Shown here one piece after another: positions 32,723 to 52,668 of a DNA stretch of 55,716 nucleotides. This DNA comes from a virus. The DNA lies in UHGV virus genome UHGV-1361255. One strand, written 5' to 3'. The position numbers and the translations under genes are program-made. Below the pieces are notes generated by a model, which ran no database searches, was not told where the DNA came from, and saw only the letters and a list, made by a program, of their open reading frames with translations. Position 1 is the stretch's first letter, and each line of letters opens with the position of its first letter.

Positions 32723-34645
32723 ATGCGTAAGGTGAAGATTGGTGAGCTAATCAATTCGCTTGTGAACGAGGTTGAGGCTATCGACGCCTCGGATCGTCCA
32801 CAAGGCGAAAAAACAAAGAAAATTAAAGCCGCAGCTATAAAATATAAGAATGCATTATTTAATGATAAAAGAAAGTTTCGCGGAAAAAGCTTAGAAAAAA
32901 GAATTTCGGCTAATACTTTCAATGCCTATATGAGCCGGGCAAGGAAAAGATTTGATGATAAATTACATCATAACTTTGAAAAAAACGTAATAAAATTATC
33001 CGAAAAGTATCCATTATACAATGAGGAATTATCCTCATGGCTTTCTATGCCTGCGGCATCAATTCGACAAAATATGTCAGCTCTGCAAGCCAAGCTAAAA
33101 GAAATAATGCCATTGGCAGAAGATTTATCAAATATAAAAATCGGTGCGAAAAACAGCGATGCAAAATTAGCCAAACTTGCCAATAAATATCCAGAATGGC
33201 AATTTGCTATTAGTGATTTAAACAGTGATGATTGGAAAGAAAAGCGAGATTATCTTTATAAACTCTTCCAGCAAGGCTCTTCGCTTCTGGAAGATTTAAA
33301 CAATTTGAAAGTAAACCATGAGGTCCTCTATCACTTGCAGCTTAGCTCTGCAGAGCGAACCTCCATCCAGCAGCGCTGGGCCAACATACTCAGCGAGAAA
33401 AAGCGCAACGTGGTTGTGATTGACTATCCGCGCTATATGCAGGCTATCTACGATATAATCAATAAACCTATATCTTCGTTTGATTTAACCACCCGTCGAG
33501 GTATGGCCCCTCTGGCGTTCGCGCTTGCGGCGCTATCTGGTCGACGAATGATTGAAATCATGCTTCAGGGTGAATTTTCCGTCGCAGGTAAATATACAGT
33601 AACATTCTTAGGGCAAGCTAAAAAACGCTCAGAAGATAAAGGTGTATCAAGAAAAATATATACTCTTTGCGACGCTGATTTATTTGTGAGTCTGGTTAAC
33701 CAACTTCGCTCCTGCCCTGCTGCTGCGGATTTTGATGAAGTGGTTAAAGGGTATGGGGAAAATGATACTCGCTCTGAAAATGGTCGTATTAACGCTATTC
33801 TAGCGACAGCGTTTAATCCGTGGGTAAAAAAATTCTTAGGCGATGACCGCCGCGTTTATAAAGATAGCCGCGCTATTTACGCCCGCATTGCCTATGAAAT
33901 GTTTTTCCGCGTTGACCCACGGTGGAAGAATGTCGATGAGGACGTTTTCTTCATGGAGATTCTCGGTCATGACGATGAAAACACCCAGCTGCACTATAAG
34001 CAGTTTAAACTGGCAAACTTCTCCAGAACCTGGCGTCCACATGTTGGCGAGGAAAATACCCGGCTGGCAGCGCTGCAAAAGCTGGATAGCATGATGCCAG
34101 ATTTCGCCAAAGGCGACGCCGGGGTTCGTATTCATGAAACCGTGAAGCAGCTGGTGGAGCAGGACCCATCGATAAAGATCACAAACAGTACCCTGCGACC
34201 ATTTAACTTCAGTACCAGGCTGATTCCTCGCTACCTGGAGTTTGCCGCCGATGCATTGGGCCAGTTCGTCGGTGAAAATGGGCAGTGGCAACTGAAGGAC
34301 GAGGCGCCTGCAATAGTCCTGCCTGATGAAGAAATTCTTGAGCCCATCGACGACGCCGATCTCGATGACGGAGACCAGGAAGATGAAACGCTGGATGACG
34401 ATGAGATCGAAGTAGACGAAAGCGAAGGAGAGGAACTGGAGGAAGTGGACGACGCTGAAGAGGCCGAGGAGGCTGAGCAGGAAGAGAAACATCCTGCCAA
34501 GCCAAACTTTAAAGCGCCGAGGGATAATGGCGATGGTACCTACATGGTGGAGTTTGAATTCGATGGCCGTCATTACGCCTGGTCTGGTGCCGCCGGTAAT
34601 CGGGTAGAGGCAATGCAATCTGCCTGGAGTGCCTACTTCAAGTGA
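32723..34645 (+). CDS. telN: protelomerase (telomere resolvase), TelN/TelK-like
   Basis: 640 aa; N-terminus MRKVKIGELINSL... and an acidic DDDEIEVDESEGEE tail match my recollection of phiKO2 TelK; adjacent telRL palindrome. Confidence 0.9.
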   Translation: MRKVKIGELINSLVNEVEAIDASDRPQGEKTKKIKAAAIKYKNALFNDKRKFRGKSLEKRISANTFNAYMSRARKRFDDKLHHNFEKNVIKLSEKYPLYNEELSSWLSMPAASIRQNMSALQAKLKEIMPLAEDLSNIKIGAKNSDAKLAKLANKYPEWQFAISDLNSDDWKEKRDYLYKLFQQGSSLLEDLNNLKVNHEVLYHLQLSSAERTSIQQRWANILSEKKRNVVVIDYPRYMQAIYDIINKPISSFDLTTRRGMAPLAFALAALSGRRMIEIMLQGEFSVAGKYTVTFLGQAKKRSEDKGVSRKIYTLCDADLFVSLVNQLRSCPAAADFDEVVKGYGENDTRSENGRINAILATAFNPWVKKFLGDDRRVYKDSRAIYARIAYEMFFRVDPRWKNVDEDVFFMEILGHDDENTQLHYKQFKLANFSRTWRPHVGEENTRLAALQKLDSMMPDFAKGDAGVRIHETVKQLVEQDPSIKITNSTLRPFNFSTRLIPRYLEFAADALGQFVGENGQWQLKDEAPAIVLPDEEILEPIDDADLDDGDQEDETLDDDEIEVDESEGEELEEVDDAEEAEEAEQEEKHPAKPNFKAPRDNGDGTYMVEFEFDGRHYAWSGAAGNRVEAMQSAWSAYFK

Positions 34646-34650
34646 CAAAA

Positions 34651-34680
34651 AGGCCACAGGTTATCGCCTGTGGCCTTTCC
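34651..34680. terminator. hairpin terminator between telN and the convergent BRO-N gene
   Basis: aggccacagg-ttatcg-cctgtggcct with a short T run on + and an A run on -. Confidence 0.45.
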
Positions 34681-34699: not shown

Positions 34700-35482
34700 T
34701 CAGGAAGAGACGGCAGGAGCCTCTAATTTTGTGGATAAGGCCTCCAGTTTATTGATGGCCAGCTCGAAATGCGCTGGCAGCACCTTCTCCACCTCTGAGC
34801 CAAGGTCGATGATTGATAATTCCTCTCGCGACACACTCCGACGCGCCCCACGAACCACCTCACGCAAAAATTCCCGCTCGTAGGTCCGCATATTGTCCAG
34901 CGCGGTTTCTGCCGACGTTAATATCCGGCGCAACTCGGCAGTGATGGCCGGGAGATCGTCAACCGTAATCGGATTGGGGGATGGATTCCTGCAGGCGCGA
35001 CGTAGCGCCAGCCATACACCACTTTTCCATGCGTTGTGGTACCGAAAACTTTGGGCTATATCGTTTATCAGGCCGCGTAATTCTTCCTTTTGCCGCCAGT
35101 CCAATGGTTCACCGGCGCTTTTTGGCGCGGGTTCGACGTAGCTGTATTCACCGCTTTTCCGAATAGCTGGCAGAACCTCGTTGGTGACCCACTTGCGGAA
35201 CCGCCAGGCCGTCGTTCCCTGCTTCACCGCATCGCGGCAGCGGAGGATCAGAGTGTACAGGCCAGACTCAGAAATAATGGACATGTTAGGATTCCCACGA
35301 TTACCGTCACTTAAAGTTACGGTATTTTTTTCATCATCATCAAGCGATGACAATGCTTTTCGTGAGTTCACTAGTTTCAATGCATCACAGATATCTTTAG
35401 CCACAAACCACGGTTCGCCATTAACCAGAACCACCCGAACGGGGTGGTTTTCCTGAAACGAGAAAACAGATAGTGCGTTCAT
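34700..35482 (-). CDS. BRO-N (KilA-N-like) domain antirepressor-type protein
   Basis: N-terminal ~110 aa fits the Bro-N pattern (VRVVLVNGEPWFVAKDICDAL...LDDDEK...GLYTLILR...WVTNEVLPAIRKSG); start is ATGA-coupled to the upstream 76-aa ORF. Confidence 0.7.
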   Translation of the reverse strand: MNALSVFSFQENHPVRVVLVNGEPWFVAKDICDALKLVNSRKALSSLDDDEKNTVTLSDGNRGNPNMSIISESGLYTLILRCRDAVKQGTTAWRFRKWVTNEVLPAIRKSGEYSYVEPAPKSAGEPLDWRQKEELRGLINDIAQSFRYHNAWKSGVWLALRRACRNPSPNPITVDDLPAITAELRRILTSAETALDNMRTYEREFLREVVRGARRSVSREELSIIDLGSEVEKVLPAHFELAINKLEALSTKLEAPAVSS

Positions 35483-35709
35483 TTGGCCTCCCTGGCGGTC
35501 AGCTGCGCTGACAGAGAGGAAGAACAGCTTCGGGCCTCTTGTACCAGCTCACGGGCAACCTGGAGTAATTCTGCCGCCTCCTGCATATGCAGTGAGGCCT
35601 CGTAACTGGAGATCGTCCGATGGGCGGAGGAAACCAGCGCTTCTATCTGCGCTAGGCGCTCCTCAATCGATTCAAGCAGGCCCTGGGTGTTTAACTGCAC
35701 CTGATTCAT
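35479..35709 (-). CDS. 76-aa helical protein (paralog of 51139..51363)
   Basis: MNQ...GLLESIEE.L.QIEAL... shares about 30% identity with the 74-aa ORF in the second module; translationally coupled on both sides. Confidence 0.5.
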   Translation of the reverse strand: MNQVQLNTQGLLESIEERLAQIEALVSSAHRTISSYEASLHMQEAAELLQVARELVQEARSCSSSLSAQLTAREAK

Positions 35710-35870
35710 GCGGCCACCCCGCTAACCCGGATACGGGCTGACAGAACGAGAACAAAACGGCTGGCGAACTGGCGACGGGCTTCGTGCTCGGATGAGGCGA
35801 TAGTGGACAGATGATGGATATGGGATTTTTTATCGGTACGGCAGATCGCCGCGAACCTGAATTTGAACAT
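35706..35870 (-). CDS. 54-aa small protein (paralog of 50978..51142), icd-like position
   Basis: MFKFRFAAICRTDKKSHIHHLSTIASSEHEARRQ... against MYQFKFAAICRTDRKNNIHHFSTIADSEHAARRQ... in locus 2; stop overlaps the next start (ATGA). Confidence 0.45.
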   Translation of the reverse strand: MFKFRFAAICRTDKKSHIHHLSTIASSEHEARRQFASRFVLVLSARIRVSGVAA

Positions 35871-36039
35871 GGTGCGCACTCCAGTTTGGTTAGAGAGGTG
35901 CTACCACCAGAGTTCCTACGCTCTTTTGAGGGTGGTAGCCCAGACGGGGGTAGGAATACCGGAACCAAACGAGACCGGCCAGCCTTTCGGCTGCCCCGCC
36001 TGAGCCACCATAATTTGGATGCGTACAGGCAAAAGACAC

Positions 36040-36117
36040 AAAAAAACACGCTGGCGCGTGCTGTGCGTCGTTTGGTTAATCGGGTTCCTACGCCCGGCTA
36101 CAGATTTTGCTGCAGCG
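36040..36117 (-). ncRNA. candidate ~78-nt regulatory sRNA (P4 CI / N15 cA-like), locus 1
   Basis: runs from the predicted transcription start 6-7 nt past the -10 to the intrinsic terminator (stem cacgc/gcgtg plus T7 on the minus strand, 36060-36038); contains box A GCGTAGGAAC; a paralogous copy is at 50743-50817. Confidence 0.4.
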
Positions 36118-36122
36118 GGCTA

Positions 36123-36152
36123 ACTTTACCGCCAAAGCGCAACGCACGTCAA
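36123..36152 (-). promoter_or_regulatory. sigma70-like promoter TTGACG-18 bp-TAAAGT (minus strand) driving the locus-1 sRNA/antirepressor operon
   Basis: hexamers and spacing match the locus-2 promoter (TTGACG-18-TAGAGT). Confidence 0.4.
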
Positions 36153-36215
36153 TAAATTACATGGAGATTTTACCCTGTGACCAGTCACGGCGACAGGGGT
36201 TTTTATAGTTTGCTT

Positions 36216-36246
36216 TACTAACTGATCAGAACCTGATCAGTTAGTA
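36216..36246. promoter_or_regulatory. 31-bp inverted repeat tactaactgatcag-aac-ctgatcagttagta with two GATC sites
   Basis: perfect 14-bp arms; lies between the upstream early operon and the locus-1 promoter; no U run, so it is a protein-binding or methylation-sensitive site candidate rather than a terminator. Confidence 0.5.
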
Positions 36247-36258
36247 TGATAGGAGCCG

Positions 36259-36486
36259 TCAACGACCTAAAAATTCCTCATCTGGTATTTTTTCGCAAAA
36301 AAGACCAATTGGACGCGGCTCCAGCTGAGGATTTTTCTGTATCTCCTGCAAGTAACTCTGCGCCTCAATGATAAGCGCCTGCAGGGCGGTAGGATAATCA
36401 AAATGAGGCTCCTCGCCTCCGGTCTTTTCCCCGGTTACTACTGACCAGACCAAACGGGTACCTTCATTGCCATTGCTGTGTGGCAT
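36259..36486 (-). CDS. hypothetical early-operon protein (75 aa)
   Basis: member of the leftward operon of small genes downstream of repA (like N15 genes 30-36); no recognisable domain. Confidence 0.35.
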   Translation of the reverse strand: MPHSNGNEGTRLVWSVVTGEKTGGEEPHFDYPTALQALIIEAQSYLQEIQKNPQLEPRPIGLFCEKIPDEEFLGR

Positions 36487-36555
36487 ATAAAATTCTCCTT
36501 CTGAATGCTAACTACTGGAAAGAAAGAGTATTTATACACCATAACAATACGCTGG

Positions 36556-36891
36556 CTACTTCAAACCGGTTAACCGGCTGAAGAATGCGCCTGTTTTAGA
36601 TGTCGTTTCAAACCCCATACGCCCACGGATAAGCCACTGGAACGGAATTGTTAACAGATACAGCGGCACGAACCACAGTCGGTTCAGACGCTGCCAGAAC
36701 GTCGCGTCACGGCGTTCTACCCATTCGGTGTTATCGACGACTTGATAGGCAAAATGGCTACGCTCATCCTCCAGGCGGCCTCCACATAAGAAACTGGTGA
36801 TTTCTTCGTAATTGTCGAAACCTTCATCCTTCAGCTTCTTTTCCAGCTGATAACGATGAAGCACCGGCACCCATCCTCTGCGATAAATCAT
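36556..36891 (-). CDS. hypothetical early-operon protein (111 aa)
   Basis: stop/start overlap with the upstream neighbour; hydrophobic C-terminal half. Confidence 0.4.
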   Translation of the reverse strand: MIYRRGWVPVLHRYQLEKKLKDEGFDNYEEITSFLCGGRLEDERSHFAYQVVDNTEWVERRDATFWQRLNRLWFVPLYLLTIPFQWLIRGRMGFETTSKTGAFFSRLTGLK

Positions 36892-37808: not shown

Positions 37809-40800
37809 TTATATCGCCACGGCTTGCCGCTGGCTCAGAAAAGCTTTCAGCAGCCTTATCTCGCGTACTGATAGCAGGTCCATAAATTCGGTCATGTACA
37901 GCGAGGCGAACGTTCTCGCGATGCTGGCCACTGGCCACAGGCGTACCGCCTCCATTTCGGTTGCTGGCAACGCGTTCTCCGCCCACGCTTCCGGCACCGT
38001 CACCGGGATAGCCTCCAGTGCCTGAATAATTACTGATTGCGGGGTGTCCGGAATGTGGCTTGTTTTGGATCGAGGGTTACCATGTATATCTATATTTAGA
38101 TCCAGATCGCGATCCACTTCGATGGTGGTTTTTTCGACCTTGCGGGCGTGAATTGATAACCCTGCTTCGCGGCGCTTCTCCACAATATTCATGAGGAACT
38201 CGACCGACTGTGAGTCGATAGAACGCATTGTAGGTCGAGCATCACCATCTCTGGCGCGTCTGGTCTTACTGGATAACCCCATAGACTCCAGGATGCCTTT
38301 GCATAGTTCTTCAGGGGCTTTCTTTTTGCCCTTCTCTGTGTTGAAGCCACCTATGCGCAAAACGTTGTTCAGCAGATCGCGCCGTTCCGGGGTTAGCAGG
38401 TTATCCCTGGCGCGTTTGAGGGCGTCCATGTCGGCCTCACCGGTCAGTGTTTCTGGATCAATACCACAGTCGCGGAAGTACTGTCGCAGCGTTGCTGATT
38501 TGAGAGTGTAAAAACCACGCATGCCTATTTCAACCGCTGGTGTAGATTTGACGCGGTAATCGGTTATGGCCGGGAATTTAGCGTGGAACTCCTCGTCGGC
38601 CTGTTCTCGTGTCATAGCTGTTGTGACAAATTGCTGCCAGCGACCGGCGACGCGATAAGCGTAGGTAAAGTGGATCAACGCTTCCTCGCGGTCAAGGCGA
38701 CGCGCGGTTATCTCATCCAGCTGCATGGTTTCAAACAGACGCACTTTTTTCAGGCCGCCGTCGAAATAGAATTTTAACGCCTCCTCGTCGACATCCAGCT
38801 GCAGCTCCTTTTCGATGTCCCAGCGGACCAGCTGGGCCTGCTCATCCAGAGACAGGGTGCGTTTTTTTATCAACTCATCGTGTTCGCCTTGGTCAGGGGT
38901 ATCGACACTCAGGTGGCGTTCCATAAGCTGCTCAAAGACCAGCTCACGGGCTTCTTTACGTAAATCCTTACCGATGCTGTTTGCAAGCGCGTCGGTAGCC
39001 ATAGGCGCGACCTGATAGCCATCATCATGCATGATGCAAATCATGTTGCTGGCATAATCATTTCTGGCCGACGCCTCGAGCGCGGCGGCTTTAATTTTGA
39101 GCTGCATGAATGAAGAGTTAGCCACACCGAGTGAAATTCGGTCACCGTCAAAGACAACGTCTGTCAGCAGCCCGGAGTGGCCAGCCGTTTCGAGCAAGGC
39201 CTGCGCGTAGGCGCGTTTGATTTTTTCCGGATCGGTTTCACGTTTACCGCGAAGCTTGTCGAAACCGATGATGTATTCCTGAGCTGTACGGTCGCGGCGC
39301 AGCATCTGGATGGCGTCGCTGGGGACCACTTCGCCGCAGAACATGCCGAAATGGCGGTGGAAGTGTTTCTCCTCAATCGATACACCTGAAGATATCGACG
39401 GGCTGTAGATGAGGCCGTCATATTTTTTCACCATCACTTTAGGCTGGTTGGTGAAATCGTCGACTTCCTTCTCCTGTTTGTTTTTCTGGTTAACGCAGAG
39501 AAACTTTTTGTCAGGGAAATGGAGTCTCAGCTGCATGGTAACGTCTTCGGCGAACGTCGAACTGTCGGTGGCCAGCATGATTCGTTCGCCGCGTTGCACT
39601 GCAGCGATGACCTCGGTCATGATCCGATTTTTCTCGGTATAAAATACGCGGATAGGCTTGTTGGTTTCGCGGTTGCGAACGTCGACCGGGAGTTCAATCA
39701 CGTGAATTTGCAGCCAGGCAGGTAGGCCCAGCTCCTCGCGTCGCTTCATCGCCAGTTCAGCAAGGTCGACAAGCAGATCGTTGGCGTCGGCATCCACCAT
39801 AATGGCATGCTCTTCAGTACGCGCTAGCGCGTCGATAAGCGTGTTGAATACGCCTACCGGGTTTTCCATCGCACGCCCGGCCAGAATGGCACGCAGGCCC
39901 TGTGTTGCTTCATCGAAGCCGAAGAAGTCATGCTGGCGCATCAGCGGTTGCCAGCAGCCTTTAAGTATGGAGTTGATGCAAATAGTCAGCTTGTTGGCAT
40001 ATGGCGCCATTTCCTGATAGCCGGGATCCTGATAATGCAGAATGTCGGCTTTAGCGCCTTTCCCTTCGGTCATCATTTCATGCAGGCCGCCTATAAGGGA
40101 TACGCGGTGCGCGACGGAAACGCCACGCGTGGACTGCAGCATCAGTGGACGCAGGAGACCTGTCGATTTACCAGAGCCCATCCCGGCGCGGACAATAACG
40201 ATGCCCTGCAGCTGTGCGGCGTATGTCATAACCTCATCAGTCATCCTGGAGGTTTCAAACCGTTTGTAAGTGATGTGTGACGGGCGAAGGTTCGGGTTGG
40301 TGATGCGTTCACTGAACGAACGTGATGTTTGCGCGGCACGGCATTTGCGATTCAACCGGCGCGTAATGTGATCTTTAACGGTACCGTTATAAATTTCTGC
40401 GATCCCCATATCTCGCAGCGTGCTGCTGAACAGGCGCATAAGTTCTTTCGGGCTGTTTGGTACCGGGCATGTCAGCATGCCAATATCGACGGCGCGAAGC
40501 AGCTCTTTGGCAAAAGTACGTCTGTTCAGCCGCGGGAGAGTACGCAGTTTATTCAGCGTAATCGACAACAGGTCGGTTGCACGGCTCAGATTATTTCTCG
40601 TTAACTGGCGAGCGACTTCCTTCAGCCCTCTCAAGCTGTGCAGGTCGTTAAAATCGCTGCATTCCTGCTCAGGGTCATCCTCAAAAGTTGGGTAAACACA
40701 TTTGACGCCGGAAAACTTCTCCATGATGTCGTATCCGGTGCGCAGGCCTGTGTTGCCTTTACCTTCAGCCGATGATTTGCGGTCGTTATCCAGGGCGCAG

Positions 40801-41798
40801 GTAATTTTTGCTGCCGGGTACATATTCACCAGCTGCTCAACAACATGGGTCATGTTGTTTGCGGCCACTGCGACCACGACAGCATCAAAGCTTTTTTTCG
40901 GGTCCTTACGGGTAGCCAGCCATACGGACGCGCCGGTGGCGAAACCTTCCACCACTGCAATATTTTGCGCGCCGTTCAGGTTGCCGATAACAAAGCACGC
41001 CCCGACGAAATCACCGCTGGTGATCGCGCTGGTCTGGAATTTACCGCCGCGCTGGTCGATACGCTGCCAGCCGACAATTTGTCCGTCTTTGCGTCCGTCC
41101 AGGTGGGCCAGCGGAATCGCCATGTATGTAGTCGGTCCACGGCTCCATTTTGCGTTGTCGTGACTGGTCACGCGACGAATATCGCAAGCGCTGAATACGT
41201 CACGAATGCCTTTTTTCACTGCGTAAGGCCACGACCCGTCCTCAGCTGGCGCATGTTCCCATGCACTGTGGAACGCCAACCATCCGAGCAACCGTTCTTG
41301 CTCTAACTGATTGTTTTTAAGTTCATTTATCCGTTGTTGTTCGGCGCGGCGCTTGCGGGCTTCAGCCTGGCGTTCAATACGCGCCAGTTCTTCAGCAGGT
41401 TGTGCGACCACGGTCGCATGATTTCTTTGTTGTTCACGGCGGTATTCGGCGAACAGGAAGGAGAAGCCGCTCCAGGAACCTTCGTCATGCCCTTTCTGGA
41501 CAAAGTTGACGAATGGGTAGCTGATGCCGCTTTTGTGTTGTTCCTTGCGGGAGTAGATTTCCACACGCCCTTTGAGGCTCTTTTCCAGAGCCTCGGGGGC
41601 GCCACCGTTATATTTTGAATAACGTTCTTCCCCGCCGCGCGGGTTCAACTGAATGTTATCAGCGCATGCTGTCCAGTTAATGCCAGCCATTGTGGCCAGC
41701 TCTGACAGCTCATCCCGCGCTGCTTCAAGCAATGAATACGGATCGCTACCGAAGCGAGCCGCATAGAATTCTTGTAAGGTCATTTTTAGCCTTTCCAT
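37809..41798 (-). CDS. repA: replication protein RepA (primase-helicase; the origin is expected inside the gene)
   Basis: 1329 aa; N-terminal primase-like region, central P-loop (GMGSGKS), N15 RepA-like size and position between the cB region and the small-gene operon. Confidence 0.85.
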   Translation of the reverse strand: MERLKMTLQEFYAARFGSDPYSLLEAARDELSELATMAGINWTACADNIQLNPRGGEERYSKYNGGAPEALEKSLKGRVEIYSRKEQHKSGISYPFVNFVQKGHDEGSWSGFSFLFAEYRREQQRNHATVVAQPAEELARIERQAEARKRRAEQQRINELKNNQLEQERLLGWLAFHSAWEHAPAEDGSWPYAVKKGIRDVFSACDIRRVTSHDNAKWSRGPTTYMAIPLAHLDGRKDGQIVGWQRIDQRGGKFQTSAITSGDFVGACFVIGNLNGAQNIAVVEGFATGASVWLATRKDPKKSFDAVVVAVAANNMTHVVEQLVNMYPAAKITCALDNDRKSSAEGKGNTGLRTGYDIMEKFSGVKCVYPTFEDDPEQECSDFNDLHSLRGLKEVARQLTRNNLSRATDLLSITLNKLRTLPRLNRRTFAKELLRAVDIGMLTCPVPNSPKELMRLFSSTLRDMGIAEIYNGTVKDHITRRLNRKCRAAQTSRSFSERITNPNLRPSHITYKRFETSRMTDEVMTYAAQLQGIVIVRAGMGSGKSTGLLRPLMLQSTRGVSVAHRVSLIGGLHEMMTEGKGAKADILHYQDPGYQEMAPYANKLTICINSILKGCWQPLMRQHDFFGFDEATQGLRAILAGRAMENPVGVFNTLIDALARTEEHAIMVDADANDLLVDLAELAMKRREELGLPAWLQIHVIELPVDVRNRETNKPIRVFYTEKNRIMTEVIAAVQRGERIMLATDSSTFAEDVTMQLRLHFPDKKFLCVNQKNKQEKEVDDFTNQPKVMVKKYDGLIYSPSISSGVSIEEKHFHRHFGMFCGEVVPSDAIQMLRRDRTAQEYIIGFDKLRGKRETDPEKIKRAYAQALLETAGHSGLLTDVVFDGDRISLGVANSSFMQLKIKAAALEASARNDYASNMICIMHDDGYQVAPMATDALANSIGKDLRKEARELVFEQLMERHLSVDTPDQGEHDELIKKRTLSLDEQAQLVRWDIEKELQLDVDEEALKFYFDGGLKKVRLFETMQLDEITARRLDREEALIHFTYAYRVAGRWQQFVTTAMTREQADEEFHAKFPAITDYRVKSTPAVEIGMRGFYTLKSATLRQYFRDCGIDPETLTGEADMDALKRARDNLLTPERRDLLNNVLRIGGFNTEKGKKKAPEELCKGILESMGLSSKTRRARDGDARPTMRSIDSQSVEFLMNIVEKRREAGLSIHARKVEKTTIEVDRDLDLNIDIHGNPRSKTSHIPDTPQSVIIQALEAIPVTVPEAWAENALPATEMEAVRLWPVASIARTFASLYMTEFMDLLSVREIRLLKAFLSQRQAVAI
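41403..41418. promoter_or_regulatory. F-sopC-like 16-bp inverted repeat tgcgaccacggtcgca inside the repA coding region
   Basis: identical to the copies at 52669 and 52823. Confidence 0.5.
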
Positions 41799-50643: not shown

Positions 50644-50705
50644 AGTCAACTATAAAAACGACTATCTTCGCGACGGGTCACAGGATAAAGTATCTACGCA
50701 AATGA

Positions 50706-50735
50706 TTGACGTGTGTTGTATGTTGGCGGTAGAGT
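50706..50735 (+). promoter_or_regulatory. sigma70-like promoter TTGACG-18 bp-TAGAGT driving the locus-2 sRNA
   Basis: matches the locus-1 promoter in sequence and spacing. Confidence 0.4.
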
Positions 50736-50742
50736 TACCCCG

Positions 50743-50817
50743 CTGTAGCAAAATCTGCAGCCGGGCGTGAGAACCCGAGAGACAGTCAGCGCACAACACG
50801 CGCTTGCGTGTTTTTTT
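50743..50817 (+). ncRNA. candidate ~76-nt regulatory sRNA (P4 CI / N15 cA-like), locus 2
   Basis: hairpin gctgtagc-aaaat-ctgcagc, box A GCGTGAGAAC (50765-50774), intrinsic terminator cacgcgc-ttg-cgtg plus T7 (50797-50817). Confidence 0.4.
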
Positions 50818-50977
50818 GTGTGTAAATCCTGCGCATACCTGAATTATGGTGGCTCAGGTGGGGCAGCTTTCGGGCTGGCCGGTTGCTGATTGTGCCGGTT
50901 TCTCACCCCCGCCTGGGCTACCACCAATTGAGCGTGAGAACTCTGGTGGTGGCAAAACCATCAATCAGAGGTGAATC

Positions 50978-51142
50978 ATGTATCAGTTCAAATTCGCGGC
51001 GATCTGCCGTACCGACCGTAAAAACAACATTCATCATTTTTCGACTATTGCTGATAGTGAGCATGCAGCGCGCCGCCAGCTTTCCTACAAGTTCGTTCTG
51101 TTTTTCCAGGCACGCCTACCAGTATCGGGAGGTGCAGCATGA
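50978..51142 (+). CDS. 54-aa small protein (paralog of 35706..35870)
   Basis: GAGGTG RBS; stop overlaps the next start (ATGA); not in the ORF track because it is shorter than 60 aa. Confidence 0.45.
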   Translation: MYQFKFAAICRTDRKNNIHHFSTIADSEHAARRQLSYKFVLFFQARLPVSGGAA

Positions 51143-51363
51143 ATCAAATGAAAATGAACGAACATGGACTAGCTGAATCGCTAGAATCTGTACTCTGTCA
51201 GATAGTTGCTTTGCTAAATGTTACCCAGAATGCACTTGATGGAAGTGAAGGTAGCATCTATATGCGAGATGCTGTGCATATGCTTAATGCTGCGCGTAAT
51301 CTGGCCATTGAAGCAGAGCAATACCGATCCGAATGGGAACAACTGATTATTCGCAACCGGTAA
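51139..51363 (+). CDS. 74-aa helical protein (paralog of 35479..35709), C-terminus possibly altered by the tnpB insertion
   Basis: similar to the 76-aa paralog up to about residue 55, then diverges; ends 8 bp before tnpB. Confidence 0.45.
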   Translation: MNQMKMNEHGLAESLESVLCQIVALLNVTQNALDGSEGSIYMRDAVHMLNAARNLAIEAEQYRSEWEQLIIRNR

Positions 51364-51371
51364 GGGATTAT

Positions 51372-52580
51372 ATGTTGAAGCGGCAGGCCTTCAAATTCCA
51401 GCTAAGACCAAATGGTCAGCAGGAGCGCGATATGCGGCGCTTCGCAGGGGCTTGTCGCTTCGTTTTTAACCGCGCGCTGGCATTTCAGAATGAGAACCGT
51501 GAAGCCGGAAACAAATATATTCCCTACACCAAAATGGCTTCATGGCTCATTGAGTGGAAATCCGCACCGGGAACAGCATGGCTGAAAGAAACACCTTCGC
51601 AGCCGTTGCAACAGTCACTGAAAGATCTGGAGCGCAGCTACAAGAATTTCTTCCAGAAACGCGCAGCATTCCCACGGTTTAAAAAGCGCGGGAAAAGTGA
51701 TTCATTCCGCTATCCCCAAGGTGTGAAACTGGAGCAGGGAAACAGCCGAATTTACCTGCCAAAGCTGGGATGGATAGGTTATCGCAACAGCCGTGAAGTC
51801 ATTGGCGAAGTGAAAAACGTCACGGTCAACCAGTCATGCGGTAAATGGTACGTCAGTATCCAGACGGAATACGAAGTGGCTGCCCCCGCTCACCATGCAA
51901 AGTCAATGGTCGGGTTGGATGCCGGAGTCACGAAACTCGCCACGCTTTCAGATGGCACGGTATACCATCCAGTCAACAGCTTTAAAGCAAACCAGCGCAA
52001 GCTGGCAAAGCTCCAGAGGCAGTTAAGCCGCAAAGTTAAATTCAGTGCCAACTGGCAGAAACAGAAGAAAAAAATCCAGCGTCTGCACTCGCACATTGCC
52101 AATATTCGGCGCGACTACCTTCACAAAGTCACCAGTGAGATCAGCAAAAACCACGCAATGATCGTTGTTGAGGATTTGAAGGTAAGTAACATGTCGAAAT
52201 CGGCAAAAGGCACGGCAGAACAGCCTGGACGAAACGTCAGAGCTAAATCAGGCCTGAACCGTTCGATACTGGATCAGGGCTGGTATGAAATGCGTCGTCA
52301 GCTGGAGTACAAGCAACTCTGGCGTGGTGGTCAGGTACTGGTAGCTCCGCCAGCATACACGAGCCAACGTTGCGCCTGCTGTGGTCATACAGCGAAAGAG
52401 AACCGCCTGTCACAAAGTAAATTTGTATGTCAGGTATGCGGCTACACAACGAACGCCGATATCAACGGTGCTCGTAACATTTTAGCGGCAGGACATGCCG
52501 TGCTTGCCTGTGGAGGGATGGTGCAGTCAGGCCGCCCGTTGAAGCAGGAACCCATCGAGGTGATTCAGACGTCAGTCTGA
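51372..52580 (+). CDS. tnpB: TnpB (OrfB) RNA-guided endonuclease of an IS200/IS605-family element
   Basis: 402 aa from the ATG at 51372 ([17 protein letters not shown]); RuvC motifs GLDAGV, IVVEDLK and [10 protein letters not shown] with a CxxC...CxxC zinc finger, all intact. Confidence 0.85.
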
Positions 52581-52593
52581 ACGCGGTAGGAAT

Positions 52594-52623
52594 CCCCGTC
52601 CTTTAGGGCGGGGAGGATGTCAA
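52594..52623. repeat. IS605-family right-end-like imperfect hairpin ccccgtcctttagggcggggaggatgtcaa
   Basis: 14 bp after the tnpB stop; a second copy is at 46457-46486. Confidence 0.45.
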
Positions 52624-52668
52624 ATTGCTGGTCCGATGACAGGTCGCATAGCGGCAAAATTGAGACCG

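Follow-up and report, generated by a model that had tools for sequence, protein, structure and literature searches.

Is the antirepressor operon on the minus strand of the virus genome UHGV-1361255 controlled by a new kind of RNA switch or by one that has already been described? The DNA analysed here, called the window, is the whole stretch of 55,716 nucleotides, and the operon with its leader, called locus 1, occupies positions 36246 to 34700. An earlier note, made from the letters of the DNA alone, had read locus 1 as an operon under the control of a small RNA, with three short boxes (A, B, and C) ordered around a terminator, and had likened it to the immunity systems of P4, P1/P7 (c4-icd-ant), and N15 (immA/cA). 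The systems were named correctly, as is evident from matches to Rfam families, homology to N15 and phiKO2, and covariation of the boxes. The window is the DNA of an N15/phiKO2-like linear-plasmid telomere phage, and the studied region is homologous to the immA locus of N15, which includes the cA RNA, icd, antA, and antB. Locus 1 is very probably an immA-type anti-immunity operon of this phage controlled by a pair of RNAs of the IsrK and C4 types.

Locus 1 is thus an already-described anti-immunity control region and is ordinary rather than new, because published work already links the C4, isrK, and N15 immA systems. The name immA denotes the icd-antA-antB operon in N15 and phiKO2 (PMC4488713; PMC10612081). 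IsrK has been equated with seqA of P4 and C4 with CI of P4, with N15 listed among the phages that use the system (PMC3632133), and IsrK and C4 have been treated as structural homologues of seqA and CI (PMC4825925; PMC3632133). The discovery value of locus 1 is therefore small: the directly homologous system of N15 was characterised in 1999, and both RNAs of locus 1 are covered by curated Rfam models. The protein called 'ImmA' in a 2025 paper on telomere phages is an unrelated bacteriocin immunity protein and not a product of the immA locus.

The stretch of about 2 kb around locus 1 has nucleotide identities of 99.5% to Klebsiella phage vB_KpnS_KpLi5 (KpLi5), 94.5% to phiKO2, and 76.6% to N15. 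A search of the whole window against Rfam at gathering thresholds, which the earlier note had proposed together with the comparison to the N15/phiKO2 immA region, gives five matches, three of them in locus 1 and two in a second copy of the system, called locus 2. The isrK family (RF01394) matches positions 36116-36041 with 70.1 bits against a cut-off of 50, over the full length of the model and with the terminator included. The C4 antisense RNA family (RF01695) matches 36015-35928 with 76.9 bits (cut-off 45) and E = 2.3e-13, and the match covers all 87 positions of the model. The match of c4-a1b1 (RF03163) to 36129-36077 is marginal, with 46.8 bits against a cut-off of 46.7. All of the features of the C4 family, the isrK family, and an N15-type immA operon that can be checked in silico are present at locus 1. 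The elements of the leader, in the direction of transcription, are:

36152-36123, minus strand: sigma70-type promoter TTGACG-18-TAAAGT, the counterpart of N15 Pa, with a predicted start near G36116
36116-36041, minus strand: IsrK/seqA-like leader RNA, about 76 nucleotides long if terminated, identified from the isrK and c4-a1b1 matches and the fold
36093-36084, minus strand: box A, GCGTAGGAAC (GCGUAGGAAC in RNA), upstream target complementary to box B
36077-36068, minus strand: second upstream box, AACCAAACGA, in the single-stranded part of the leader, complementary to the hairpin-2 loop of C4
36062-36040, minus strand: intrinsic terminator from a terminator scan, GC-rich cacgc/gcgtg stem (36062/36060-36045) and U7 (T7 run to 36040)
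36015-35928, minus strand: C4/CA-type antisense RNA with a 17-bp closing stem and two hairpins
35972-35963, minus strand: hairpin-2 loop of C4, UCGUUUGGUU, antisense to AACCAAACGA and to AACCAAAC
35956-35950, minus strand: box B, UUCCUAC, unpaired internal segment of C4, antisense to boxes A and C
35939-35900, minus strand: alternative hairpin GCUACCACC...GGUGGUAGC (gctaccacc/ggtggtagc) with box C in its loop
35921-35912, minus strand: box C, GCGUAGGAAC, downstream target, the identical 10-mer to box A
35891-35884, minus strand: downstream box AACCAAAC, followed after one base by the icd Shine-Dalgarno sequence GGAG (35882-35879)

The promoter is the sole sigma70-like match in 35400-36600 and agrees with the consensus at 9 of 12 positions; since shuffled sequences contain 1.4 such matches on average, a single match is at the level of chance. 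However, N15, phiKO2, and locus 2 retain both hexamers, and the Rfam isrK model begins at 36116, coinciding with the predicted transcription start. The leader folds into hairpin 1 (36116-36097), hairpin 2 (36096-36081), a single-stranded stretch that contains the second upstream box, and the terminator. Box A is displayed in the 8-nucleotide loop CGUAGGAA of hairpin 2. In an alignment of 23 N15-like leaders prepared with MAFFT, which is the basis for all of the column-level comparisons given below, hairpin 1 has five pairs with double changes, and the stem of the terminator is invariant or differs only by wobble pairs. The matching terminator is annotated as putative in the records of N15 and phiKO2. 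The production of C4 and of the mRNA requires read-through of this terminator. The RNA of about 75-80 nucleotides with an end at 36040, which the earlier note had proposed to look for, fits an IsrK/seqA leader that carries the target box A; the expected repressor, however, is C4, which carries box B.

The match of the C4 family starts 25 nucleotides beyond the end of the IsrK-like segment, so that the leader, terminator, and C4 are in the canonical order. When the C4 segment is folded alone, its structure of minimum free energy is the Rfam consensus, in which both antisense elements are unpaired. Hairpin 1 of C4 is cagcc-gaaa-ggctg, hairpin 2 has an open loop, and the UUCCUAC segment is unpaired. 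The closing stem is long, resembles the acceptor stem of a tRNA, and ends with ...ACCACC. In the 23 leaders, 98.9% of the cells of the fold consisting of the leader hairpins, terminator, and C4 are paired, and 10 pairs have changed on both sides. The corresponding values for the alternative hairpin are 99.5% and 3 pairs. Therefore, both hairpins that had been picked out by eye, cagcc-gaaa-ggctg and gctaccacc/ggtggtagc, are conserved with compensatory changes. The C4 fold and the alternative hairpin are mutually exclusive, because GCUACCACC is also the 3' strand of the closing stem of C4. The inner AGAG/CUCU stem of the alternative hairpin frames the same CGUAGGAA loop as hairpin 2 of the leader, and in the predicted structure a read-through transcript that has not been processed presents box C in this loop. 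The whole leader of 259 nucleotides has a minimum free energy of -107.7 kcal/mol (z = -4.6); this structure contains the alternative hairpin, and its upstream boxes pair in cis with the C4 elements.

The boxes A, B, and C are present as described previously and co-vary, with A as the upstream target, B inside C4, and C as the downstream target. The 10-mer GCGTAGGAAC has only two copies on either strand of the window, both in the leader of locus 1, and its 7-nucleotide complement, box B, is located between them. The switch with three boxes is nevertheless only one half of the arrangement. It is a real triplet, but there are two triplets, and the second, which had not been listed, reaches the Shine-Dalgarno sequence. 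Its antisense element, UCGUUUGGUU, is exactly complementary to both AACCAAACGA and AACCAAAC. Beyond one mismatch, the duplex of the C4 loop with the downstream site covers GGA of the icd Shine-Dalgarno sequence, with a predicted energy of -11.7 kcal/mol, and in many relatives the loop duplex spans the whole GGAG. C4 of locus 1 thus has the two exposed elements that define its family. Each has a target on either side, with the downstream site at the ribosome-binding site of the first gene.

Covariation across relatives bears out the proposed order of box A, terminator, box B, and box C. An exact-pattern scan of IMG/VR with the conserved part of C4 provided 82 DNA stretches (loci L005-L086), from which 73 unique parsable leaders were obtained. 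Among them are 32 combinations of 25 distinct hairpin-2 loops with 9 distinct internal segments. All 73 leaders have, at conserved distances, an upstream site for each of the two C4 elements, which is complementary to the internal segment over 6-8 bp and to the loop usually over 8-12 bp, and downstream copies of both boxes are at conserved positions in 72. The exception (u16, L021) has no downstream match of the internal segment, and its sequence diverges after C4. In the 23-leader alignment, the three central pairs of both A-B and B-C are paired in every leader, with three pair types and 10-13 double changes apiece. Their covariation score is 0.37, compared with 0.12-0.14 in shuffled alignments; none of 500 shuffles reaches 0.37, and the maximum for slid registers is 0.21. 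The loop triplet scores lower, with 71-74% of positions paired, because insertions and deletions blur its alignment columns.

For one triplet, a natural exchange of the whole set can be seen. The window and phiKO2, which are 94.5% identical, have the GUAGGAA/UUCCUAC set in common; however, all three members of the triplet next to the Shine-Dalgarno sequence differ together, being AACCAAACGA, UCGUUUGGUU, and AACCAAAC in the window, and CCAGUCAGC, GCUGAUUGG, and CAUCAGC in phiKO2. In a four-way alignment, N15 and locus 2 have matched box sets of their own as well. The boxes of N15, UCUCAAC/GUUGAGA and the ACAAGAAG type, are unlike those of locus 1, and its immunity specificity is predicted to differ. 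It appears that specificity evolves by swapping whole box triplets as a set, as between the window phage and phiKO2. The set of 73 leaders illustrates how immunity specificity diversifies through the co-ordinated change of three sites, and could guide the design of orthogonal antisense switches.

The leader is followed by three genes and a terminator:

35870-35706, minus strand: icd-like gene, 54 residues; 69.5 bits to NCBIfam phage_ICD_like and 85% identity to the C-terminal 54 residues of N15 gene 32
35709-35479, minus strand: antA-like gene, 76 residues; 78% identity to N15 gp31 and a match to phrog_10889 (anti-repressor)
35482-34700, minus strand: antB-like gene with a BRO-N domain, 260 residues; 82.2 bits to Pfam Bro-N and 75% identity to N15 gp30
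34647-34678: predicted terminator hairpin GGCCACAGG-cgataa-CCTGTGGCC with T5, read from the sequence and common to the convergent telN

The ATGA overlaps that had been proposed to join the open reading frames of 54, 76, and 260 residues are confirmed. The icd gene starts with the ATG at 35870, 58 nucleotides beyond the Rfam C4 match, and has its own Shine-Dalgarno sequence. The BRO-N protein had been called the antirepressor. It has the BRO-N domain; however, in the nomenclature of N15 it is the auxiliary AntB, and the 76-residue AntA is the antirepressor. The phiKO2 record accordingly describes the counterpart of the 76-residue protein as 'similar to antirepressor ... N15 AntA' and that of the BRO-N protein as 'auxilary anti-repressor ... 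AntB'. The counterpart of the 54-residue protein is annotated there as similar to icd of N15. By homology, the AntA-like protein is a putative inactivator of the prophage repressor CB. A match of Pfam LtuB to the 54-residue frame (17.9 bits, cut-off 25) and a match of XopN to the 76-residue frame are below threshold and have been disregarded. At the place matching the last terminator, the phiKO2 record lists a terminator as 'putative bidirectional'.

The gene order around the operon is that required of an N15-type immA locus, which is flanked by telN and repA:

32723-34645, plus strand: telN, the protelomerase gene, from the annotation of the homologous N15, phiKO2, and KpLi5 records
37809-41798, minus strand: repA, replication protein of 1329 residues, from the list of open reading frames and annotated homologues

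These features suggest how the operon may be controlled. Transcription would start near 36116 from the promoter at 36152-36123, and many transcripts would end at the terminator at 36062-36040, yielding a leader RNA of about 76 nucleotides with box A in a hairpin loop and the second box single-stranded. Transcripts that read through would contain the C4/CA RNA (about 36015-35928), which would be cut out by analogy with c4 of P1, CI of P4, and CA of N15. Mature RNAs of the C4 type are processed from the leader transcript; in P1 and P4, it is RNase P that makes the 5' end. The RNA from locus 1 would expose two antisense elements, the hairpin-2 loop UCGUUUGGUU and the internal UUCCUAC, which would pair in trans with box C, in its hairpin loop, and with AACCAAAC beside the icd Shine-Dalgarno sequence. 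This pairing is expected to block the binding of ribosomes at icd, and the transcript left untranslated would most likely be terminated prematurely. The antA and antB genes would then be silent, because their ATGA coupling makes them dependent on translation and transcription passing through icd. The repressor is most likely the processed C4/CA RNA with box B. In P1, C4 RNA is required for the full repression of ant (PMC8198154), and in P4, CI acts through seqA and seqC to terminate transcription prematurely (PMC4825925). The upstream copies of the boxes may compete for C4, either as part of the short leader RNA or in cis within the nascent transcript, and probably tune or counteract the repression. 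Their role is the least certain part of the model, although a modulating role is quite plausible. The many matched box sets fit immunity specificity exerted in trans, and repression itself is expected from homology.

Several points weigh against this model. The elements, their family membership, the folds, and the three-way complementarity are properties of the DNA itself, but processing, repression, and the termination step are carried over from homologous systems. The CA RNA may block translation, as C4 does in P1, or may have a more direct effect on termination, like CI of P4. The mean energies of cognate duplexes are about -11.3 kcal/mol for the loop and -6.5 kcal/mol for the internal segment, compared with -7.2 and about -4.2 kcal/mol for non-cognate partners, so that the energies of segment duplexes separate the two groups just moderately. 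The gain from cofolding whole C4 with its targets is small (-2 to -3 kcal/mol), because the fold of C4 itself is very stable, and according to these predictions pairing would have to begin as loop-loop contacts. In addition, the homologous region of Gifsy-1 differs, since the short IsrK activates translation there and a reading frame overlapping the C4-like sequence is translated (PMC4825925).

Comparison with characterised systems places locus 1 closest to the immA loci of N15 (Ravin, Svarchevsky and Deho 1999) and phiKO2 (genes 27-30). As in locus 1, immA is located between telN and the repA operon and has the order palindrome, promoter, leader, terminator, C4-type RNA, icd, antA, and antB. 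The immI region of P1 and P7 (c4, icd, and ant1/2; Citron and Schuster 1990) shares with locus 1 the C4 and c4-a1b1 families, both models of which match locus 1 at full length, the two antisense elements, each with upstream and downstream targets, the position of the downstream target at the icd ribosome-binding site, and an Icd-like first gene followed by the antirepressor. However, the window belongs to a linear telomere phage, its proteins are a 76-residue AntA and a BRO-N AntB instead of Ant1/2 of P1, and, unlike in P1/P7, an intrinsic terminator separates the upstream targets, on a short IsrK-like RNA, from C4. P4 has the same logic of an upstream target (seqA), a processed antisense RNA (CI RNA with seqB), and a downstream target (seqC). 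By contrast, what CI of P4 controls through premature termination is not an icd-antirepressor operon but the replication (alpha) operon of a satellite phage, and P4-like genes are not present in the window phage. The isrK locus of the Salmonella prophage Gifsy-1 (IsrK, orf45/STnc1160, and anrP; Hershko-Shalev et al. 2016) belongs to the family whose model matches the leader of locus 1 over its full length. As in locus 1, a stable processed RNA complementary to IsrK is encoded downstream of it, with an antirepressor-like gene further downstream. Unlike in locus 1, the reported regulator is the short IsrK, which activates translation, and orf45, coupled to anrP, is read from the C4-like region. 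Locus 1 instead has a distinct icd with its own Shine-Dalgarno sequence after C4, and the length of the frame inside C4 is not conserved in the N15-like class.

The differences in Gifsy-1 raise the question of whether the main regulator in trans could be not C4 but the short terminated leader RNA (36116-36041), acting as an inducer. Binding of its box A and AACCAAACGA to C4 or to the transcript that reads through would then expose the ribosome-binding site and switch the antirepressor operon on. The isrK match of 70.1 bits with an intact terminator is compatible with such a role, as is the minimum-free-energy structure of the whole leader, where C4 elements and upstream boxes pair in cis in a way reminiscent of the 'inactive structure A' of Gifsy-1. 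In Gifsy-1, prophage induction depends on the short IsrK, which in trans increases the translation of a fusion to the downstream antirepressor by a factor of more than 100 (PMC4825925), and IsrK-like sequences are required for lysogeny in P4-like prophages of S. Typhi (PMC3632133). However, the genetically defined immunity factor of P1, P4, and N15 is the C4/CI/CA RNA (PMC8198154; PMC3632133), and the separate icd gene of locus 1, with its own Shine-Dalgarno sequence 58 nucleotides past C4, is unlike orf45 of Gifsy-1, which overlaps the C4-like sequence. Because the leader has the same boxes as the mRNA target, the only route by which the short RNA can act is via C4 or sequences like it, and the role of a modulator inside the C4 system describes it better than that of an alternative. 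A main regulatory role of the leader RNA is thus improbable. A purely cis-acting attenuator, in which the leader hairpins and the alternative pairings of GCUACCACC set termination or the exposure of the ribosome-binding site, would make a diffusible RNA unnecessary. The use of the strand GCUACCACC in two conserved, mutually exclusive structures and the joining of upstream boxes and C4 elements in cis in the full-leader fold are what such a device would look like. However, a simple terminator/antiterminator needs no targets of the kind found in the 73 leaders, in which each antisense element co-varies with two flanking sites, with the one downstream exception. Furthermore, superinfection immunity in P1/P7, P4, and N15 is determined by homologous RNAs that work in trans (PMC8198154; PMC3632133), and two copies with different boxes in one phage fit specificity in trans, which leaves an attenuator acting in cis alone with hardly any credibility.

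The stretch between the terminator and icd could also be protein-coding, as it is annotated in N15, phiKO2, and KpLi5 and in analogy to orf45, the translation of which has been reported in Gifsy-1 (PMC4825925). The earlier note had described a gap of about 550 bp with no credible reading frame. A gap exists, but it is 388 bp long (36258-35871, from the 75-residue gene to the 54-residue frame), and mechanically called minus-strand frames of 125, 49, and 41 residues overlap it, some of which are annotated in deposited records. Three deposited coding sequences overlap C4 in records that list no RNA gene:

L001:1745-2035: N15 gene 32, named 'cA: secondary immunity repressor' in an older record
L003:1088-1264: phiKO2 gp30, 'transcriptional repressor'
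L004:1052-1186: KpLi5 gp32, 'Icd-like protein'

In locus 1, a frame starting from the AUG inside AAUUAUGGUGG is open for 31 residues. Among 31 distinct box combinations, only 2 stop codons touch the variable C4 segments in that frame, compared with 11 and 10 in the other frames, and the counts for the hairpin-2 loop alone are 1 compared with 9 and 9. In relatives with a long spacer, the frame from the AUG in the C4 stem continues in frame into the downstream gene. By contrast, the frame ends after 15-42 residues in about half of the members of the N15-like class and in other members overruns the start of the downstream gene in a different frame. Close relatives differ by insertions and deletions of 1-2 nucleotides inside it, the three annotations disagree on frame and boundaries, and the AUG lacks a preceding Shine-Dalgarno sequence and is buried in the 17-bp closing stem of C4. 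The variation is like that of an RNA, with compensatory pairs and co-varying boxes. The 'cA' product of N15 is reportedly a small processed RNA, going by the title of the 1999 paper of Ravin et al., which also counts against coding. That the region is a protein gene is thus very unlikely. The coding sequences annotated over C4 are treated here as legacy calls of open reading frames over an RNA gene, because of the inconsistent frames, variable length, insertions and deletions, missing Shine-Dalgarno sequence, and compensatory substitutions. The check for a known protein-coding gene, which had been set as a way to refute an RNA switch, therefore does find deposited coding sequences, but their frames and boundaries differ and the substitutions are compensatory.

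The long-spacer class, for example L005:5229-5490:-, has the frame from the C4-stem AUG open into the downstream gene (...EVALMATTLTPSHP). This hints at translation of the C4 region in this class as well, similar to what has been reported for orf45 in Gifsy-1. Over the matching DNA, the N15 record lists genes 30-32 and a 'putative rho-independent terminator'. Two PHROG profiles that match Icd, phrog_1743 (94 positions) and phrog_6928 (202 positions), reach well upstream of the 54-residue Icd, and because of this extension they are perhaps partly built from coding sequences over C4. The analysis is of value for annotation, as the KpLi5, phiKO2, and N15 records place coding sequences over the C4 RNA, at least one of which is labelled 'Icd-like'.

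The paralog mentioned in the earlier note is the second pair of isrK and C4 matches in Rfam, at 50742-50928 on the plus strand. The features of this module, locus 2, are:

Within 50647-52641, plus strand: promoter TTGACG/TAGAGT
50742-50816, plus strand: IsrK-like leader (Rfam isrK)
50842-50928, plus strand: C4 (Rfam C4)
50978-51142, plus strand: Icd-like gene, 54 residues
51139-51363, plus strand: AntA-like gene, 74 residues
51333-52580, plus strand: IS605 OrfB/TnpB, 415 residues, overlapping the end of the AntA-like frame

The module (50647-52641) has no AntB-like gene. This cassette of about 2 kb stands in place of about 300 bp of the otherwise 99%-identical KpLi5, the closest sequenced relative. 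No close copy of locus 2 is found among deposited phages, and one is present in IMG/VR (L037). Both box triplets differ between the two loci: the sets are GUAGGAA/UUCCUAC and AACCAAAC/GUUUGGUU in locus 1, and GUGAGAA/UUCUCAC and CAAUCAG/CUGAUUG in locus 2. Energies calculated for cross-talk between the loci do not separate them, as the gains of whole-molecule cofolding are near zero for all pairs and the segment duplexes hit alternative sites. The prediction that the loci do not cross-talk comes from the mismatches between their boxes. The triplet of phiKO2 next to the Shine-Dalgarno sequence resembles that of locus 2 (a GCUGAUUG-type loop). As a resemblance of sequences, this likeness suggests an exchange of specificity determinants between modules. 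It is conceivable, but rather doubtful, that the phage carries two orthogonal IsrK-C4 switches whose triplets are swapped as sets and whose leader RNAs serve as diffusible anti-antisense RNAs that sequester C4. If the leader RNA does sequester C4, each switch would be a bistable circuit of three RNAs and not a simple antisense repressor.

The DNA upstream of the promoter contains further conserved elements:

36246-36216: inverted repeat TACTAACTGATCAG-GTT-CTGATCAGTTAGTA, with 14-nucleotide arms that are 100% complementary, a 3-nucleotide spacer, and two GATC sites 11 bp apart
36199-36210, minus strand: conserved 12-mer AACTATAAAAAC, about 50 bp upstream of the -35 hexamer, the plus strand of which holds the heptamer TTTATAG
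36202-36208 (plus strand), 50650-50656 (minus strand), 42003, 42653, 42664, and 42696: TTTATAG sites

The inverted repeat with its two GATC sites, which had been described previously, is located directly after the stop codon of the 75-residue gene. It is single-copy in the window, with 0 copies expected by chance, and is absent from locus 2. It is kept in N15, phiKO2, and several relatives from IMG/VR, although the flanking sequences diverge, and in other relatives, a different pair of GATC sites is located about as far upstream. Without a U-tract, the palindrome is ruled out as an intrinsic terminator. A role as an operator for CB shared with immB was also considered; this idea has been dropped, because the window contains no second copy with up to 3 mismatches and the inverted repeats of cB-cro and repA are different. 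A search for the pattern GTGAC-N3-GTCAC gave no matches, as the local motif has a 2-nucleotide spacer and the pattern did not fit it. The palindrome could be a protein-binding site or a site sensitive to Dam/SeqA.

The 12-mer AACTATAAAAAC is present upstream of the promoters of both locus 1 and locus 2, about 50 bp from the -35 hexamer in each. The heptamer TTTATAG occurs 14 times in the window, compared with 3.9 occurrences expected, and clusters in the cB-cro intergenic region and in the control region upstream of repA. Speculatively, the heptamer or the 12-mer may be a putative half-site of the operator for the prophage repressor CB. The cluster in the cB-cro intergenic region includes the palindrome TTTATAGCTGGCTATAAA.

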